A stretch of DNA of 51,172 nt from Girardia tigrina. Taxonomy: Eukaryota. Positions within the stretch are counted from its first letter, which is position 1; each line of letters starts with the position of its first letter. Positions 2,681-47,481 of this stretch are shown here, piece by piece. The position numbers were made by a program, and so were the translations under genes. A model generated the notes under the pieces. The model saw nothing but the letters and a program-made list of their open reading frames with translations, was not told the origin of the DNA and made no database searches. The stretch covers positions 6,862-58,033 of the forward strand of contig MQRK01237787.1 in the NCBI GenBank assembly GCA_001938485.1, written 5' to 3'.

Positions 2681-3424
2681 AAAAAAAGAAAAAATGAGAA
2701 ATAATTAAAAATTGTTTTTTTAATTAAATCATTTTAATTAATTAAAATGTTAATAGGGAATTTTTTTTTAAAAAATCGTTATTTTAAATCTGAGTTTGAC
2801 ACTTTTTTTGGCTGGACCACAGTTCCTTAAAAAAATTTTTTTCTATACATATTTACGGTGGACTCCCATAAAACTCGAGTTTACACAACGCGTTAAGAAA
2901 GGTAAGACGACTTTTTTCATATAAAACGATGTCGGTATAACGCGTTATAAAATTTAATGTGGAAATTTCCATTTTAAACACTTTACATACATTAAATTTT
3001 TATTCAAACTCGTTTCTCCATTTCTTGTTTTTCAATGAAGTACTTTTGTATTGCTTTGTCAATTTAATTACATATACATCGTCATTATTAGCAACATCAC
3101 ATTTTGCGTAAACACATTTATTTACAATAAAAACAGTATGTTTGCTTTAAGATGATTACTACGCTAGCAAACCAATTAAATATTAAACTTGTTGTAACAC
3201 GACAGTGCAACAAAAAGAAACACCGGAATAATCATTAATCATCACACGTGGAAGATTATCTTGGCAAAACAATATTTATACCATATTTAGATTCAATAAT
3301 TAATTCTTTGAAATGCCGCTTTTCGGAAAGTAATTATGCACAGTTCAATCCTTTTTCATTACATCCAATTCAAATTAGTAACTTCAATCGTCAAAATGAG
3401 TGTTATAAATAATACTTTAAACAT

Positions 3425-3523
3425 GGGGATCTGTTACTTTGGTAACCTGTGTTAAGCCAGTCGGACATACCTCCACGTGGTGTCCCTGGGAAACTAGAGC
3501 TTGCTCTAGGCTAAAGTGTCCGA
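3425..3523 (+). ncRNA. HDV-like self-cleaving ribozyme
   Basis: P1 GGGGAT (3425-3430)/GTCCCT (3482-3487) with G1-U wobble; P2 TCGGACAT (3461-3468)/GTGTCCGA (3516-3523); P3 ACC/GGT around L3 TCCACGT; P1.1 CC/GG; P4 CTAGAG-CTTG-CTCTAG; J4/2 GCTAA with putative catalytic C at 3511. Confidence 0.85.
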
Positions 3524-3729
3524 AGTTTGCCTTGTTGGGGTGCTGACCAACATAGTACGGAGGTCTGGGCCTGCAATCCACCCCTTTAAAAGGCATTGCT
3601 ATCCGAGCGGGATGTGGAAATGTCTTCGGACAACGCCCACTATCAGTTGAGGGGTGAAACCCGATGAAAGACCGACTCGGCTCCTTTGGCTCCTGATGGG
3701 CGTATGCGGATTACCGCGGGAGGGAGGCG
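3425..3729 (+). mobile_element. 305-bp non-coding ribozyme-headed retroelement (SINE/SIDE-like)
   Basis: GC-rich island starting at ribozyme G1. Flanked by 12-bp direct repeats TACTTTAAACAT (3413-3424) and TACTTAAAACAT (3730-3741), one mismatch. Confidence 0.75.
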
Positions 3730-3967
3730 TACTTAAAACATAAAAAAGATCGAAAATGAAGTCATGATTTGGTATGATATCATAAATATGGTATGATATC
3801 ATATGTGATCTATCATAAAACTTAGAGTTATGTGATTTTGGCTTTCTGTATTTGTTATGATAAACTAGTTTGTTTCCAGTAATCCGTCATGCAATTTTGA
3901 TTTTAATAACGTTATCAACCACGTGTACAGAGAGGTCTTTTAGTACATTACGGAGAGTCAAAACTTG

Positions 3968-4336
3968 GCTGAGGACTATTATGTCTGATGACCATTATCT
4001 AGCATTATAGATTTGCATTTGTTGTTTAGATTTGTGACTCTCCTACTCAGATGGGATTGATATGTTATTTGATTAATTATTTGAATCTAATGAAATTAAT
4101 TTAATGATATTAAATTAAAGTACTAATTAATTAAAGTTTGATAATTATGAATTTTAATAATATTTTCAGTAAACGATTTTTTTCATATTTTTTAATAATA
4201 TTTTCAAATTTTTTCATATTTAAATATTTAATCAAAAACTATATTAATCAAAGAATGATGACCACTGAAAATTGTTGTGAAGAATCTGTTTGTGTTGTAA
4301 ATAAATGTTTGCATTCAAATTGTGATGTTGTTAATA
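3968..4336 (+). mobile_element. LTR, family copy A (degenerate 5' end)
   Basis: Starts near GCTGAGGA. Has the TCTCCTACTCAGATGG box, ATG 4255 (MMTTENCCEESVCVVNKCLHSNCDVVN) and AATAAA 31 nt before the end GTTAATA. No TSD recognised. Confidence 0.7.
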
Positions 4337-4467: not shown

Positions 4468-4787
4468 ATTTGTTGTTTAGATTTGTGACTCTCCTACTCA
4501 GATGGGATTGATATGTTATTTGATTAATTATTTGAATCTAATGAAATTAATTTAATGATATTAAATTAAAGTACTAATTAATTAAAGTTTGATAATTATG
4601 AATTTTAATAATATTTTCAGTAAACGATTTTTTTCATATTTTTTAATAATATTTTCAAATTTTTTCATATTTAAATATTTAATCAAAAACTATATTAATC
4701 AAAGAATGATGACCACTGAAAATTGTTGTGAAGAATCTGTTTGTGTTGTCAATAAATGTTTATATTCAAATTGTGATGTTGTTAATA
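4468..4787 (+). repeat. near-identical direct copy (A') of 4017-4336, a 5'-truncated LTR
   Basis: Direct repeat at 451-bp offset with only a few substitutions, ending at the same LTR terminus. Confidence 0.9.
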
Positions 4788-7511: not shown

Positions 7512-7924
7512 TGTGAGGAACGTTTTGAATTGTGTGTTGATATTGTGCATGTTGTATGTTGATTCGGATTGTACCTCTCCTGCACAGATGGATGATTGAT
7601 ATTTTCTTTGATTCTTACTAATTAAAAATAATTTAATTTAATTTTAAAGTAAAAAGATTTATAATAATTTTTGAATGTATTATTTATTTTTTAATGTAAT
7701 TTAAAATTTTAATATATTAATTTAATATGTTCTTTTTTAAAAAATGTTTAGATTTAATTTTAACCAATTAGATTCTTTAAAATTAATAATTTTATTAACA
7801 TATTTTCATTTATTGAAAATAATTAGTTTGATCTCAGAAATATATTGATCAAGAGAGATGTCAAATAGTGAATGCGCTTGTGATATTAATAAATGTTGTA
7901 AAACTCATATTGATGTTGTTAATA
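7512..7924 (+). mobile_element. solo LTR, family copy B
   Basis: TGTGAGGAA...GTTAATA with perfect TSD AACAT (7507-7511/7925-7929). TCTCCTGCACAGATGG box; ATG 7858 (MSNSECACDINKCCKTHIDVVN). Confidence 0.9.
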
Positions 7925-8159
7925 AACATAAAATACTGAATATATATAACTGCTGTCTAGGAACAAGGATATATAACCCCAAATTGGGCCAAAGTAAAAT
8001 TTTTGGTTAATAAAGATCAAACCCTTTATCATATTTCTTTTATATTTATGTTCGAAAAAACTGTTAGGGGTTTTATTTAAACACTTATCAATTTCCTTTC
8101 GCCCACTTTAGCTTTGATATTTCTTTAAAAGATTGAAGGAAATATACGTCTGTTGATAT

Positions 8160-8498
8160 TATTAACAAAATCAATATAAGGTTTACAACATTTATTAATA
8201 TCACAAATGCATTCAATATTTGACATTTCTCTTGATCAATATATTTCTGAGTTCAAACTAATTATTTTCAATAAATGAAAATCTGTTAATAAAAATTATT
8301 AATTATAAAGAATTTAATTGGTTGAAATTAAATCTAAACATTTTTTTTAAAAAAAAAGAACATATTAAATTAATATATTAAAATTTTAAATTACATTAAA
8401 AAATAAATAATACATTCAATAATTATTTAAAATATTTTTACTTTAAAATTAAATTATTTTTAATTAGTATGAATCAAATAAAATATCAATCATCCATC
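8160..8498 (-). mobile_element. inverted, 5'-truncated LTR copy B'
   Basis: Reverse complement of 7587-7924 with scattered substitutions. ATG 8226 (MSNIECICDINKCCKPYIDFVN). Confidence 0.9.
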
Positions 8499-10020
8499 CA
8501 TATTTTTGGAGGACATCATTTTTAGTGGGCGATTGGCGGAATAACTTCACTACTGACCTCACCTTTTTTATCAAAGAATAGAATTCCATCACTAGGTCCA
8601 CTAGAATAAAATTTCATGTAATAATTTAACAAGTAATGTTTTCCGAAACCGTTACCCGGTTATGAGGCCTAGTTAAAACCGGTTATAGGTTCTGACAAAT
8701 ATTCCTGTCTACCCAGGTACCTGGCTTCCGTGAACCACGGTTTACATGCCTTAAGCTCGAACCGCAGGTTGTCCCGAAAATCGGATGGTGGTATCAGGAC
8801 TGCGCAGTAAATCATTCTGATTGTGTTGTGCTAATCAAAACAAAAATAAATCACTCTTCTTTGAAGAATGAAAATAATCAATCACAAGCGCACAGTAATA
8901 ATCATTTGAGTTCAGAAATATGATAAAGAGGCTCTAAATCACAATATTAATGAATTTATAAAGTTAAAATAAATAACGCTAATTAAAGTTAGATTACTTT
9001 TTATTATCTTTCGATTCAACGATAAAGCTCTCACAAATCAACAAATTCTGAATTAATTAAAATAAATAGCTTCAGCCAAACTCAATATCACCCATAGAAA
9101 TTGAAAATGTACCTCATCAAAAAATGATCACAAAAAATATCCGCTATAATTCCATTTAATCACAAAGAAAACATCTCCCCGTCAAAAGAATCTCTTCAGA
9201 AAATCAATCTATAATTATTTTTCAAAAAAAAACAAAACCAAACTATTGATAATTTTCCAAAAAAAGATATCTATAATGTGTGCAACCAATCAGAGTTGCA
9301 CACAAAATGACTCATGTGACTCAGTTTTGAAGAATCAAAATTTTTCAAAAACGTAAATTAAGTTAAAATCATTACTTAAATTAATTTATTTTTTTTATTT
9401 ATTTAATTTTTAATTATCATAGATTGCCATTTGATAATTCTGTTTGAAAAACAGAGAGAATGAAAGACAGTTAATTTGCTATAATTAAAAAAATGATAAT
9501 ATACATAATGATATCAAGTGAATCCCGAGAAATTTGATTTAAAAATAATAAAAATAAGTAAGTAAATAAACTTAAAATATGAAAATAAATGTGGATAATT
9601 ATATAAAAATAATAAATATACATTAAAATGTGTATACGTAAAACATACAATATATTTTAATTCAGCAAATATCGTTCTTGCGAGATGGTATGGGGTACGC
9701 AGGAATAAATAATATATTCAGTAGAAGTATTTGTATGGATTCACTGTAAAATAAAATAGAATTTACCAATATAGACAAAAGCGATAAAATTAGCAAATTA
9801 TTATCATTGAAATTATAAAAATAATTTCAAAAAAAATCCGAAATAAAATCAAAATCTTAATAAAACTCAAAATCAAAAATCACCAATATAAATCAGAAAT
9901 TCCTAATAAAAAGAAAAAAATCAAGCTAAAATAAAAATCTCAGTTTAAAATAAAAAATCTCAATTTAAAATTAAAGCCTCAATTTAAAATGAAAACACTA
10001 TAAATGTATATTTTTTTCGT

Positions 10021-10059
10021 GACAATTAATTTCGACGGTATAACCGTCATCGTCAGGTC
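10021..10059 (-). ncRNA. minimal type-I hammerhead ribozyme (intact core)
   Basis: GAC-CUGACGA-U-GACGG-UUAUA-CCGUC-GAAA-UUAA-UU-GUC, with palindromic AAUUAAUU replacing stem III. Confidence 0.85.
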
Positions 10060-10130
10060 TCAAGAAAAAAATGAATTTTAAATCTGCTTATATAGGCAAG
10101 CAGTGATTATGTCATCAATGAATTATTATG

Positions 10131-10703
10131 TCATCTAAACACGCTCAATAGGGTTTTCGAGAGACCCATTTGCACATTAATCTTAGGATCTAAAGATCTG
10201 ATATAAAGTGCTTCACAGGCCACCCTCTCACAATAGTTTTTAAAACGAGAACACAGAATTTTAAAATCATTTATGTTTGTGTTTTCATTCGACTTACAAC
10301 CCTTTCTGTGTTCTGCAATATTACTCCCACCTACATTCCGACCATGTTCTTGGATTATCTTATAAAGATGACGGGACGTCTCTCCAATGTATGTGGCATT
10401 ACACCCATTACATGTAAATTTATATACGAGATCCGAAAATAATCCAAATGGGGTTGGAGATTTATTACAAAACACATTTTGGATTTTATATGTTTGTGAT
10501 ATTATTTTTAAATTAAAGGCATTATTTACGCATTTTAAAATAGAACGTTTAAATTGACCAACTCCCTCTGAATATGGAATGCTTAAAACGTATTTTAAAG
10601 TTGTTGAGTCTTTATCATTTATAATCGGTTTATTAATTAATTTATCAATTGTTTCTTTGGTCAATTTCTCAACAATTGATTTTGAGTAACCATTTTTATT
10701 CAA
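10131..10703 (-). CDS. Penelope-like element ORF C-terminal fragment (linker plus GIY-YIG endonuclease)
   Basis: LVYKFTCNGCNATYIGETSRHL..IQEH...IAEH...EALYIRSLDPKIN, a typical PLE GIY-YIG domain. RT core is missing. Confidence 0.9.
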   Translation of the reverse strand: MNKNGYSKSIVEKLTKETIDKLINKPIINDKDSTTLKYVLSIPYSEGVGQFKRSILKCVNNAFNLKIISQTYKIQNVFCNKSPTPFGLFSDLVYKFTCNGCNATYIGETSRHLYKIIQEHGRNVGGSNIAEHRKGCKSNENTNINDFKILCSRFKNYCERVACEALYIRSLDPKINVQMGLSKTLLSVFR

Positions 10704-10926
10704 TTGATTATTTTAGTTAATTGATTAATGCTATCACAGCTTTTTGTATAAGCTGATAATATATCAGATCAAGTTAATATTATATCAGATCTTTAGATCA
10801 TAAGATTAATGTGCAAACGGGTCTCTAGAAAACTCTATTGAGCGTGTTTAGATGACATAATAATCCATTGATGACATAATCACTGCTTGTCTATATAAGC
10901 AGATTTAAAATTCATTTCTTTCTTGA

Positions 10927-10965
10927 GACCTGACGATGACGGTTATACCGTCAAAATTAATTGTC
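10927..10965 (+). ncRNA. minimal hammerhead ribozyme copy, probably inactivated
   Basis: Same motif as 10021-10059 but GAAA is changed to AAAA (10953-10956). Confidence 0.75.
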
Positions 10966-11039
10966 ATGAAAAAGAAATGTATATTTAACAAATGGCGTAT
11001 TTTTGTTTTTTAAAAAATAAGATGCCATCATTTTTTAAT

Positions 11040-41319: not shown

Positions 41320-44300
41320 AAGGGGCGGATTTAACGGGTGCCAAACCTGGCGGTCGACAGGGGCCCCGAGCTTTTTAGGGCCCGAGATTGTTTAGGAATA
41401 AAAAAAAAGTTTTTTAATTTTTTTGTGTGCCGAAATATTTTATTTCGATCTTTGAATAATTTTCAGATTGAGGAATTTATTGGAGTTTTGTCAACTAGCC
41501 GTATCTAATATGTCACTTAACTACTATATATATTGGTAATATGAATAGGAATTACATGGAATATTATAAATATTCACACGGTGAATTGTTGTTTACTGGG
41601 ACACTTTGACTTAATGTGTCAATAAGAAACAAGTCAAAAGTAATTTAACCATAATTTAATTTATTACAACAACGTGCTGAATTAAAAGAACTGAAAATTT
41701 AATTGATATCATAAAATCAATTTAATTGACGTCATTAAAATCAATGGTAATTCTGATTTTTACTAGTTTTAAATGGGAAAATATTTTTCTTTTAATTTAA
41801 TTTTCAAATTATATGCCATAATATGAAGCGGCATCAAAGTGGTTCAGAAAAGAGAAAGGTAAGTAAATGTAAAGAAGAATTGTATGCAAAAGATAAGAAT
41901 GCTCTTTTGAAATTTTTAACTGTTCAAAATGATTTCCAAAAAACCATCGAAAGAGATTGAATATGGTGGTACAAATGATGTTGCTAACGTAACAATTGAA
42001 AATTGCGCAATAAATAACACTACTCTTGGAGACTCTGCAAAAGTTAACTAACGAAAATGAAGAAATAACATGTCAAGAAAAAGAACTCGATCTAGGTGAC
42101 ATTGCTATGTGGCCAAAAATATTGACCGATGAATTAATTGAACGTATAATTTTAATGAAACCCAAAAATATTGGCGATATTCATAATTTAAGATCTCTGT
42201 ACAAACGATAACGAAAAAGAATATTACCGAGGCCTCAGTGAAGAACATTATTTTCGTACAACCCAAAACAACAACAAAGAAAAAAGAAATTGGCTTGTGT
42301 TTTCGGAAACAAGTAAGTCGGTATATTGTTATCCTTGTAAAATATTTTAAAAATCTCAATCAATATTAATAACTGGAAAACCATTCCTAGTACTCTATCC
42401 GATCATGAATTATCTAAGGCACATGTGTCAGCAATATTTAATTTATAAAGGCGCCCTTCAATTTTAAACAGAATCGAGTCCAATGTTCTTAAAGAAAGAG
42501 AAATTAAAGAAAATTATTGGAAAAAGTCTTAACAAGGGTAATATCAACCATAAAATTTATGGCTAGCTTAGGTTTAGTCTTTAGGGGTCACACTGAAAAT
42601 GTGAATTCTAGTAGAAAGAATTATTTAACGTGTTTGGAATATCTGAGAGAATATGACGACTTTTTAAAAATACATTTAGACAAATATGGAAACTGTGGTA
42701 GTGGCACTACGAATAATTTATCTCATCAAACATACGATGAGTTTATTGGTATAATTCATGATTGCGTACAACAATACATAATTAACGAAATAAACAATGC
42801 GAATTACTACAGTATCATAATAGATTCTACACCCGATATTTCACACATGGATCAACTAACATTGATGATACGATATTTATTAAAAAAAACCGAGAAATTA
42901 AAGAAAGATTTGTGTGTTTCCTACAGATTAAACGACATAATGCTGACTATTTAGAAAACGTGGTACTGAAAAAGTTATATCAACTCAACATTGACATTAA
43001 ACAGTGCAGAGATCAATTTTATGACAACATTCCTAACATTTCCGGCAAATATTCAAGTTTACAAACGCGGATTAAACACTACAGTCCAACAGCACATTAC
43101 TTACCATGTGCAAGTCACTCGTTAAATTTAATTGGAAACTTTTGAGCTGAAAGCTGTACAACAGCAATTCATTATTTTACGTTCGTCCAAAACCTTTTTG
43201 TTTTTTTTTCTTCATCAACTTATCGTTGGAATATTCTACAAAAGAAACTCAAGGAGCGGAAAGAGACGCTTACAATTAAAAAACTCTCAGATACAAGATG
43301 GTCTGCCAGAGCGGATGCAGTATTGGCTTTAAAAAAAAGGTTATAGTAAAATAAGAGAAGAGTTAATTCAGATAAATGAAACTGAAACAGAAAAGCAGAG
43401 CCCTAAAACAGAAGCCATTGCATTAATTTAAAAGCTTGAAAATTATGAAATAGCTTTAATGACAATTATTTGGAATAGTATTATGCAAAGAGTAAATGCA
43501 ACAAGTAAATCTCTCCAATCTGTTGAATGTAACTTACAAAAAGGCGCCTCACTAATAAGATCTCGGGGAGATTTTATAAAAAATTTTCGCAATGAATTCG
43601 AATTAGTTGAAGAGGAAGCCAAACAACTGACGTCTAATACAACATTTAATCAACTATCGAGAACTAGAAAAAAGGCAGAAGAAGAACGTTTATTCGACCT
43701 AAAAAATATTTTTATTTTTAATACATTTTATGTCATTTGTGATAGTTTACTCTTTGAATTTAATAGAAGAAATGAAGTATATTTAGCTCTCTTAGAAAAT
43801 TTCCAAATTTTTGTCGATTTAGAATTAGAAAACGATTCAAAATCAGATTATATTAAATGTATTGCTGAATTATATAAGAATGATTTGATTCAGATCTTTT
43901 CCGAGACGAAATAGAACAATTTTTACATTTGATAAAAATGAATTTCTCAGTAATGATGGTGTGAAAAATCAAATTACTACTATGTATAAAGTTGCATTAT
44001 ATTTAAAATCTACAATTCCCAATGTAGAAATAGTTTTTAAAATTTTTTAACGATGCCAATATTAAATTCTTCCGGGAGAGATCATTTTCAGTATTAAAAG
44101 GAGTTAAAAATTATTAACGAAACTCTATAAAGGAAGAACGGTTGAATTCTCTGACATTGCTTTACACGGAGTATGGGCTTATGAATAATATTGATTGCAA
44201 TTTCTTAATTAAGAAATTTGCCAAAAACAAAATAAGAAAAAAGTTTATGTAAAATATAGTTGTTGCTCTTTGAATTTGTTTAATTTGTTAATAAACTTTT

Positions 44301-46950: not shown

Positions 46951-47481
46951 GGATCATGTTAAAAGTACGCCCCTAAAATTACACAACTAAAAAATATGCC
47001 CCCGTGTAATAAATACAATAAAAACACAATACAAAATTAATTAAGGTAATCCTGCAAAAATTCTTTTTTGACTCCCTTCATTTTCTTGCACAGTGTTTTG
47101 TTTTTATTCCAATAAGATTCAACATTTTGTGTGTGAATCCCGGTTCTAGGCTCTACAAAATTAATCGAATGATTAACTGTATCATGATCATATCCTAGAG
47201 CATTTAAATTGGAATATGNNNNNNNNNNNNNNNNNNNNNNNNNNNNNNNNNTTCTTATGATTGTTTCATACGTACTAGGTGACGTGATCCAAAAAATATT
47301 TATGAACATTAAAATAAATAAGATGTATTTATAATGAGATATAATTACACAACTAAAAAGTACGCCCCTAAAAAATACACAACTAAAAAGTACACCCCTA
47401 AAATTACACAACTAAAAAGTACGCCCCTAAAATTACACAACTAAAAAATATGCCCCTGGGGGCATATTTTTAACAAGATCC
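46951..47481 (-). mobile_element. Merlin (IS1016/ISXO2-like) non-autonomous element
   Basis: TIRs GGATCATGTTAAAAGTACGCCCC and GGGGCATATTTTTAACAAGATCC; perfect 8-bp TSD ATAAATTT; peptide GYDHDTVNHSINFVEPRTGIHTQNVESYW; 28-bp subterminal repeats. Small N gap at 47219-47251. Confidence 0.93.

Follow-up and report, generated by a model that had tools for sequence, protein, structure and literature searches.

A Short Ribozyme-Headed Noncoding Retroelement Family of Girardia tigrina and Its Candidate RTE-Like Helper LINE

We present here a short noncoding retroelement from Girardia tigrina, found in a 51,172-nucleotide stretch of contig MQRK01237787.1 (the window), and the multicopy family, family A, to which it belongs. 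The element is real, active-looking, and nonautonomous, and it works like a SIDE or NARTc. Family A is probably a non-LTR retroelement of that kind, moved in trans by an RTE-like LINE with APE, RT, and C2H2 domains. Ribozyme-headed nonautonomous elements are established as SIDEs, NARTc, and RIME (PMC3414825, PMC4035085). Reports of them come from few groups and mostly show little diversity; in the present genome, one helper lineage appears to serve at least five families. Such a guild is a natural experiment on the RNA needs of a LINE protein, and its most interesting part is the target preference of the helper and its passenger set.

Boundaries, ribozyme head, and body of the element

The element forms a 55% GC island within the AT-rich eukaryotic window. 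Its features are listed in Table 1.

Table 1. Features at the insertion, in window coordinates
Feature	Positions	Strand	Remarks
Unclassified host repeat hosting the insertion	3146..4006	.	168 first-look candidates
Target motif (A)GTGT-n-A-AA...-^TAC	3399..3415	+	Degenerate match to 28S site GGTGTCAGAAAAGT^TAC; 8/14 upstream bases here
Left TSD copy	3413..3424	+	One substitution, 3418
HDV-like ribozyme	3425..3523	+	P1-P4 fold; predicted cleavage 3424/3425; catalytic-position C3511
Hairpin TGTTGG/CCAACA	3533..3552	+	Retained in A and B; at the corresponding position, family D forms another stem
17-base word	3566..3582	+	Identical to V5 LINE 5′ UTR just past the V5 ribozyme; related words in other LINE subfamilies
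Body, origin not matched	3583..3717	+	Aligns to sister families B and C; to none of the examined LINE ends
Tail-less 3′ end GGGAGGGAGGCGT	3718..3730	+	Family B GGGGAGGAGGCCT; LINE GATGGGAGGCCC; terminal 5 bases predicted to pair with 3633-3637
Right TSD copy	3730..3741	+	First 1 to 3 bases common to element end

The initial annotation described a 12-bp target site duplication (TSD). Its copies match at 11/12 positions (TACTTTAAACAT versus TACTTAAAACAT) and so are not exact. Because 17 of 19 left-flank paralogues (19 viewed among 40 scored) pass from a single 12-mer directly to the right flank, the repeat is a true duplication whose left copy has mutated; the empty paralogue at locus L292 carries exactly the right-hand version. 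The 3′ boundary, previously placed at 3729, is corrected to 3730, possibly up to 3732. TA follows all 59 distinct family A copies, yet 4 of 47 left TSDs begin CAC, so that T3730 at least is encoded by the element. Sequencing depth in independent runs steps at 3427 and 3732.

The nested double pseudoknot claimed for the 5′ end is present and complete. P1 (3425-3430/3482-3487, GGGGAT/GTCCCT) has 6 bp, the first a G·U pair. P2 (3461-3468/3516-3523) is TCGGACAT/GTGTCCGA, and P3 (3469-3471/3479-3481) is ACC/GGT, closed by the L3 loop TCCACGT. A GGG at 3488-3490 precedes P4 (3494-3499/3504-3509, CTAGAG/CTCTAG) and the J4/2 segment GCTAAA (3510-3515), whose catalytic C, C3511, is present in 48 of 49 family A copies. 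The nested P1-P4 arrangement with L3 and a J1/4 GG is that of the HDV-like class, and the stems covary across families. Within the window, the HDV descriptor matched at 3425 alone, and it matched 0 of 100 window shuffles and 0 of 5,000 element shuffles; a looser first descriptor gave one extra, AT-rich false match at 1929. An Rfam search returned no match to the element at gathering score. The best subthreshold matches were two HDV-like families (21.3 bits, E 0.12, gathering 44; 16.2 bits, E 1.6, gathering 37), whose models are species specific. Judged from its sequence, the head would cleave itself from upstream RNA at 3424/3425.

Covariation, proposed earlier as a check on P1 through P4, was found in P1, P2, and P3 between A, D, and the LINE subfamilies, whereas the stems are nearly invariant inside A and inside B (RNAalifold covariation term for 15 A/B copies, only −0.12). 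Variants across families are GGGGAC/GTCCCT, AGGGAT/ATCCCT, GGGATAC/GTATCCT, and GGGGTC/GGCCCT for P1; TCGGACAT/GTGTCCGA, TGGGCAT/GTGCCCG, and CCCTCTCA/TGAGAGGG for P2; and ACC/GGT, ACT/AGT, and GCG/CGC for P3. Within family A, position 3430 is C or T, and either keeps P1. The head could alternatively be mainly an internal promoter of the Pr77 type, with transcription from +1 and the ribozyme secondary. Pr77 of L1Tc/NARTc is both promoter and ribozyme (PMC4035085), and J1/2, which is dispensable for cleavage, is conserved among family A copies as strongly as the stems (1.8% mismatch). We consider this improbable: J1/2 differs freely in length and sequence between families, whereas the stems covary, and the sense tandem placement inside 28S described below fits cotranscription.

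The lack of an ORF and of a poly(A) tail, observed at the outset, was borne out, as was the lack of obvious Pol III boxes: there is no tRNA and no TTTT, and the nearest B box has one mismatch, at a base private to the window copy. A Pol III SINE with a small-RNA head is ruled out, as no tRNA, 5S, or 7SL head with A and B boxes is present. Shuffled versions of the 3′ 207 nt fold as well as the native sequence (z +0.55), so the two hairpins quoted at the outset carry no weight on their own. The closing pairing predicted between the last five bases and 3633-3637 shows one G-C/C-G swap between A and B, and a similar stem closes the predicted folds of the LINE 3′ UTRs. Changes private to the window copy lie at 3526, 3561, 3670, and 3697.

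Family A and its sister families

All 40 scored matches (among 1,560 first-look candidates) are near full length, with 92 to 100% identity. Exact patterns gave 150 matches of a 27-base head, 63 A-type 3′ ends, and 50 B-type 3′ ends (controls, 0, 0, and 3). These exact matches and a divergence of about 2.6% per copy suggest a copy number of several hundred for family A; the median identity to consensus is 97.4% (49 copies). The junction set, which covered 61 of 63 A-type and 50 of 50 B-type 3′-end matches, contains 59 distinct A junctions (80 loci, duplicates removed). The noncoding multicopy family with individual TSDs that had been anticipated is found here: 46 of the 51 full-length A copies carry a TSD, 25 of them perfect, of 9 to 16 bp (mode, 12; 27 of 12 to 13 bp). 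In being noncoding and multicopy, with TPRT-type TSD junctions, family A resembles SIDEs and bipartite LINE derivatives. Family B has 35 distinct junctions (49 loci), 21 of them full length and 17 with a TSD. Sequence comparison makes A a young, shortened subfamily of B, an older family of 345 to 350 bp.

No copy was found to continue into an ORF, an outcome the initial annotation had named as counting against an independent family: each of 42 heads leads to the short 3′ end and stops there (loci mostly chosen by 3′ end), and none of the 95 distinct A/B 3′ ends terminates an ORF-bearing element. LINE coding sequence lies within 900 bases upstream of 3 of the 95, and in each case a complete short element comes after the end of the LINE itself, with a TSD between them. 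At L053, L197, and L206, an A or B copy stands directly behind a LINE 3′ end with a TSD between; L197 also has an inverted LINE 3′ fragment behind its B copy. A one-off deletion product with a chance repeat is refuted by the copies with distinct TSDs and by the empty sites. Tandem arrangements do exist, as a retrozyme-like circular RNA element would lead one to expect, but they mix different families split by TSDs, and there are hundreds of copies with distinct TSDs. There is no hammerhead match, and no 3′-to-5′ joint of A occurs in contigs of four runs, which is weak evidence since contigs only were covered. We give either origin next to no credence.

Other elements of the system are family D (270 bp), D2 (410 bp), and the noncoding, ribozyme-headed family E. 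E (L239, 1,695 bp; also L240, L241, and L246-L259) has an HDV-like head with an apparently enlarged insert between the L3-like and P1′ segments and is the commonest occupant of the 28S site. Because the searches that yielded D and E were anchored on 28S, ascertainment bias affects their apparent restriction to rDNA.

A candidate helper LINE

The predicted LINE donor has a plausible candidate in this genome, with a matching integration signature. An RVT_1 search led to a LINE with a single ORF encoding APE, RT, and C-terminal C2H2 fingers and lacking RNase H, the organization of the RTE clade. The microsatellite or poly(A) 3′ tail of that clade was seen at 0 of 11 distinct LINE 3′ junctions, which end in ...GATGGGAGGCCC or ...GGGGGAGGCTTT. 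Subfamilies V1 through V5 have an HDV-like ribozyme immediately after a 12- to 13-bp TSD, with the same upstream motif as A. In a quick tree of 55 RT rows, all of them kept, with the careful search unfinished and no labelled references, V1 through V7 form one clade (98). They fall within a group (SH-aLRT 94) that also takes in the classical RTE-type RTs of this genome and leaves out the L1-like, PHD-bearing, and RNase H-bearing rows. The label RTE, for the helper LINE and for these classical RTs, is provisional and based on motifs; the LINE may instead belong to Vingi. The closest proteins to the LINE are two at 92% and 80% identity and one at 32%, followed by other APE-RT proteins at 25 to 31%. 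ESM Atlas and PDB comparisons confirm APE-RT and nothing further, and a metagenome scan with the LINE alignment found one distant relative (31%) among 268 stretches, with an uninformative flank. The classical RTE family (L120-L123) was rejected as a partner, having no common ends and, at the single 3′ end viewed, a (GAA)n tail.

The initial annotation proposed a search for an autonomous partner sharing both ends with A. The 5′ end is homologous to the LINE 5′ UTR, as in bipartite LINE derivatives: the ribozyme core is 87% identical over 29 bases, J4/2 and the base of P4 match closely, and the V5 5′ UTR shares TGGGCCTGCAATCCACC with 3566-3582 (17/17). Such a 5′ UTR word may be an RTE hallmark; the Kojima 2018 supplement (PMC5786205) held no match backing this. 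Beyond the core and the 17-mer, A gave no alignment with any LINE end examined. At the 3′ end there is no blastn match between A and the LINE, and common to both are a terminal GGAGGC and a similar closing stem, with about the last 7 bases alike; sister family D resembles the last 40 LINE bases, judged by eye. No LINE with A-type ends was seen among the RVT_1/APE matches examined, and none of 213 listed APE-domain matches lies on the 98 contigs with a listed A head.

Family A might instead be a strict internal-deletion derivative, a true SIDE, of an unsampled or extinct LINE subfamily, with both ends from one parent. Its ribozyme and UTR word are LINE-like, its first 13 to 15 bases resemble V4, and R2Dwi_SIDE likewise has a 197-bp center without known origin and 64% 5′ identity (PMC3414825); the APE candidates scored were the best 150 of 3,817 and the best 150 of 3,141. 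Against it, 0 of the 95 distinct A/B 3′ ends close an ORF-bearing element, though 5′-truncated LINE copies should be common, and no A-type head occurred among about 80 APE-upstream loci viewed. We regard such descent as unlikely, though a serious alternative to mobilization by a LINE that shares little sequence with A.

The V7 subfamily (L242/L260, L261-L267) has over 900 conserved, partly E-like bases upstream of its ORF and a long 3′ region, and family E may be derived from it. REL-type elements ending (TTTAG)n lie beside the R2-site region of 28S, adjoining an APE LINE (L124, L158/L244).

Target motif, the 28S rRNA site, and comparison with known systems

Family A inserts at a bipartite motif. 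Aligned on the 3′ junction (n = 46), its sites have G at −13 in 39, T at −12 in 31, G at −11 in 34, A at −8 in 39, and T at −1 in 37, followed by T (42), A (45), and C (32). G at both −13 and −11 occurs in 32 of 46 A sites versus 1.8% of window TA positions. The best match to the motif is a single 28S rRNA site, GGTGTCAGAAAAGTT^ACCACAGGGAT, which makes 28S the likely home of the system. The mean match of A sites to it is 7.8/14 versus 3.8/14, and the 28S sequence GGTGTCAGAAAAGTTACCACAGGGAT recurs in the motif in degenerate form. At L190 (family A) and L089 (family B), the 3′ junction falls precisely on the 28S site, inside Rfam LSU matches. As a point against the proposed mobilization, 28S holds no more than 1 junction out of 59 for A and 1 out of 35 for B. 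Immediately past the element, all 59 A copies have T, against C at 9 of the 11 LINE junctions, and the left copy varies at this base. The base would therefore be owned by the element, and the nick is best placed at TT^AC.

At L157 the order is 28S, D, a full LINE, D2, and an E-like element, with the same 12-mer between each pair; at L243, E, V5, and V1 are separated likewise. Because the left TSD retains the motif, mixed tandem arrays build up with later elements in front of earlier ones. The downstream junction CACCACAGGGATAACTGG has 14 exact matches, and every one is a 3′ junction formed by an element of this system (11 E, 2 LINE, and 1 D). Among 24 exact matches of the upstream 28S fragment, 11 run into these elements, 12 lie in an unrelated tandem repeat, and 1 is elsewhere; none is an intact empty 28S site. 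An AT-rich tandem repeat of about 215 bp carries a 26-base 28S target fragment (L217, L218, L222, L224, L229-L232, and L235). A second hot spot is a dispersed repeat with GGGTGTCAAAACTCG^TACATCGGAGAG, repeatedly hit by A, B, and LINE copies (L057, L062, L065, L072, L160, L161, L166, L174, L175, L283, and L290).

The start of family D, CAGGGAT, repeats the end of the 28S TSD and pairs with the D P1′ strand; other heads start GGGAT or GGGGAY, and 28S bases often serve as P1 in R2 ribozymes (PMC3774820). From these observations, an rDNA origin of the ribozyme head is plausible. Mobilization by a restriction-like-endonuclease element at the same 28S stretch, such as the planarian REL element LIN9_SM, seems very improbable. 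LIN9_SM inserts at most 3 bases from this site (PMC4640811), and 28S-linked loci of this genome contain REL-type ORFs. LIN9_SM, however, inserts antisense, carries a T tail, and lacks a TSD at the junctions shown (PMC4640811), whereas A inserts in the sense orientation and has the same 12- to 13-bp TSD as the APE LINE.

Under mobilization by the APE LINE, host read-through transcription, by Pol I inside 28S and by Pol II elsewhere, would yield a longer RNA, from which the ribozyme would remove everything 5′ of G3425. The LINE protein, from a helper subfamily that we infer to lie among those described, would bind the tail-less 3′ end and nick DNA at G-T-G-T-n-A-R-R-A-nnn-TT^AC, as the TPRT model would have it. 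Microhomology of 1 to 3 bases of TA(C) would help prime reverse transcription, and a second-strand cut about 12 to 13 bases downstream, suggested by the junction pattern, would produce the TSD. Relaxed recognition from a 28S home would spread family A genome-wide. We propose tentatively, at somewhat below even chances, that an RTE-like APE LINE independently evolved a 28S preference, as a third APE origin beside R1 and Tx1. Such a LINE would read a 17-base bipartite motif, need no tail, and carry ribozyme-headed passengers, 0.27 to 1.7 kb long, that have hardly any sequence in common with it, are recognized by RNA shape, and have a P1 that began as 28S-target pairing. If true, target specificity would have arisen anew in this lineage, with the C-terminal zinc fingers as a candidate reader. 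A compact APE writer that prefers rDNA and works with short tail-less cis elements would have practical interest.

Like family A, the R2 and R2/R1 hybrid SIDEs of Drosophila are short and noncoding, with a 5′ HDV-like ribozyme, no Pol III head, a center without known origin, a 28S link, and movement in trans (for A, inferred); the hybrids have an APE-type 14-bp TSD (PMC3414825). Unlike A, they have 64 to 87% identity to a named parent and are described within rDNA, and R2Dwi_SIDE ends in poly(A) (PMC3414825). Family A is mostly dispersed and tail-less, and only the core, the 17-mer, and about 7 terminal bases are common with its probable helper. NARTc, RIME, and SIDER of trypanosomes are likewise dispersed elements of a few hundred bases with an HDV-like head and an APE-type helper (for A, a probable one), but they are clearly collinear with their parent, and that helper, L1Tc/ingi, has RNase H (PMC4035085). 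The candidate helper of A lacks RNase H and falls with RTE-type RTs in the quick tree. The bipartite RTE/Vingi elements RTESINE, Bov-A, and MAR4 have an RTE-type helper, a 5′ UTR piece plus 3′ end, and no ORF, a makeup that A probably shares, and differ in their poly(A) or microsatellite tail and in that the available text reports no target-site preference (PMC5786205). RTE is one of four clades known for bipartite derivatives, and several RTE families have HDV-like ribozymes (PMC5786205). LIN9_SM has in common with A the same short 28S stretch and differs in its REL endonuclease, antisense orientation, T tail, and lack of a TSD in the junctions shown (PMC4640811).

RTE-1 and Vingi gene-writing platforms are listed as random integrators (PMC13708176), and R1 and Tx1 are the only APE clades given as target specific in PMC4640811. 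A literature search including few subscription papers (among the sources, PMC5035012, PMC6765202, and bioRxiv 10.64898/2025.12.11.693146) found no description of family A and none of an RTE-type element preferring this 28S site; the families may be catalogued in Repbase or Dfam. The concept of a ribozyme-headed nonautonomous element is known; an RTE-like 28S-preferring LINE with several ribozyme-headed passengers was not found in print.

Part of the element is present in 20 of 24 sequencing-run rows, from 12 studies with six organism labels and including leaf-litter and aquatic metagenomes; the small shares in these runs are no evidence of range or transfer, and the RNA data are contigs only, which carry no information on start, strand, or expression level. 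In one leaf-litter contig, the flank is that of L043. Elsewhere in the window, 4017-4316 and 4468-4767 form a 300-bp direct repeat (99% identical, spacing 451), possibly a recent duplication or an assembly artifact. Long, MITE-like inverted-repeat elements occupy 7587-8498 and 9999-10987, and weak matches to DUF4371 and an ISXO2-like DDE domain mark DNA transposon remnants at 42508-42954 (+) and 47037-47411 (−).
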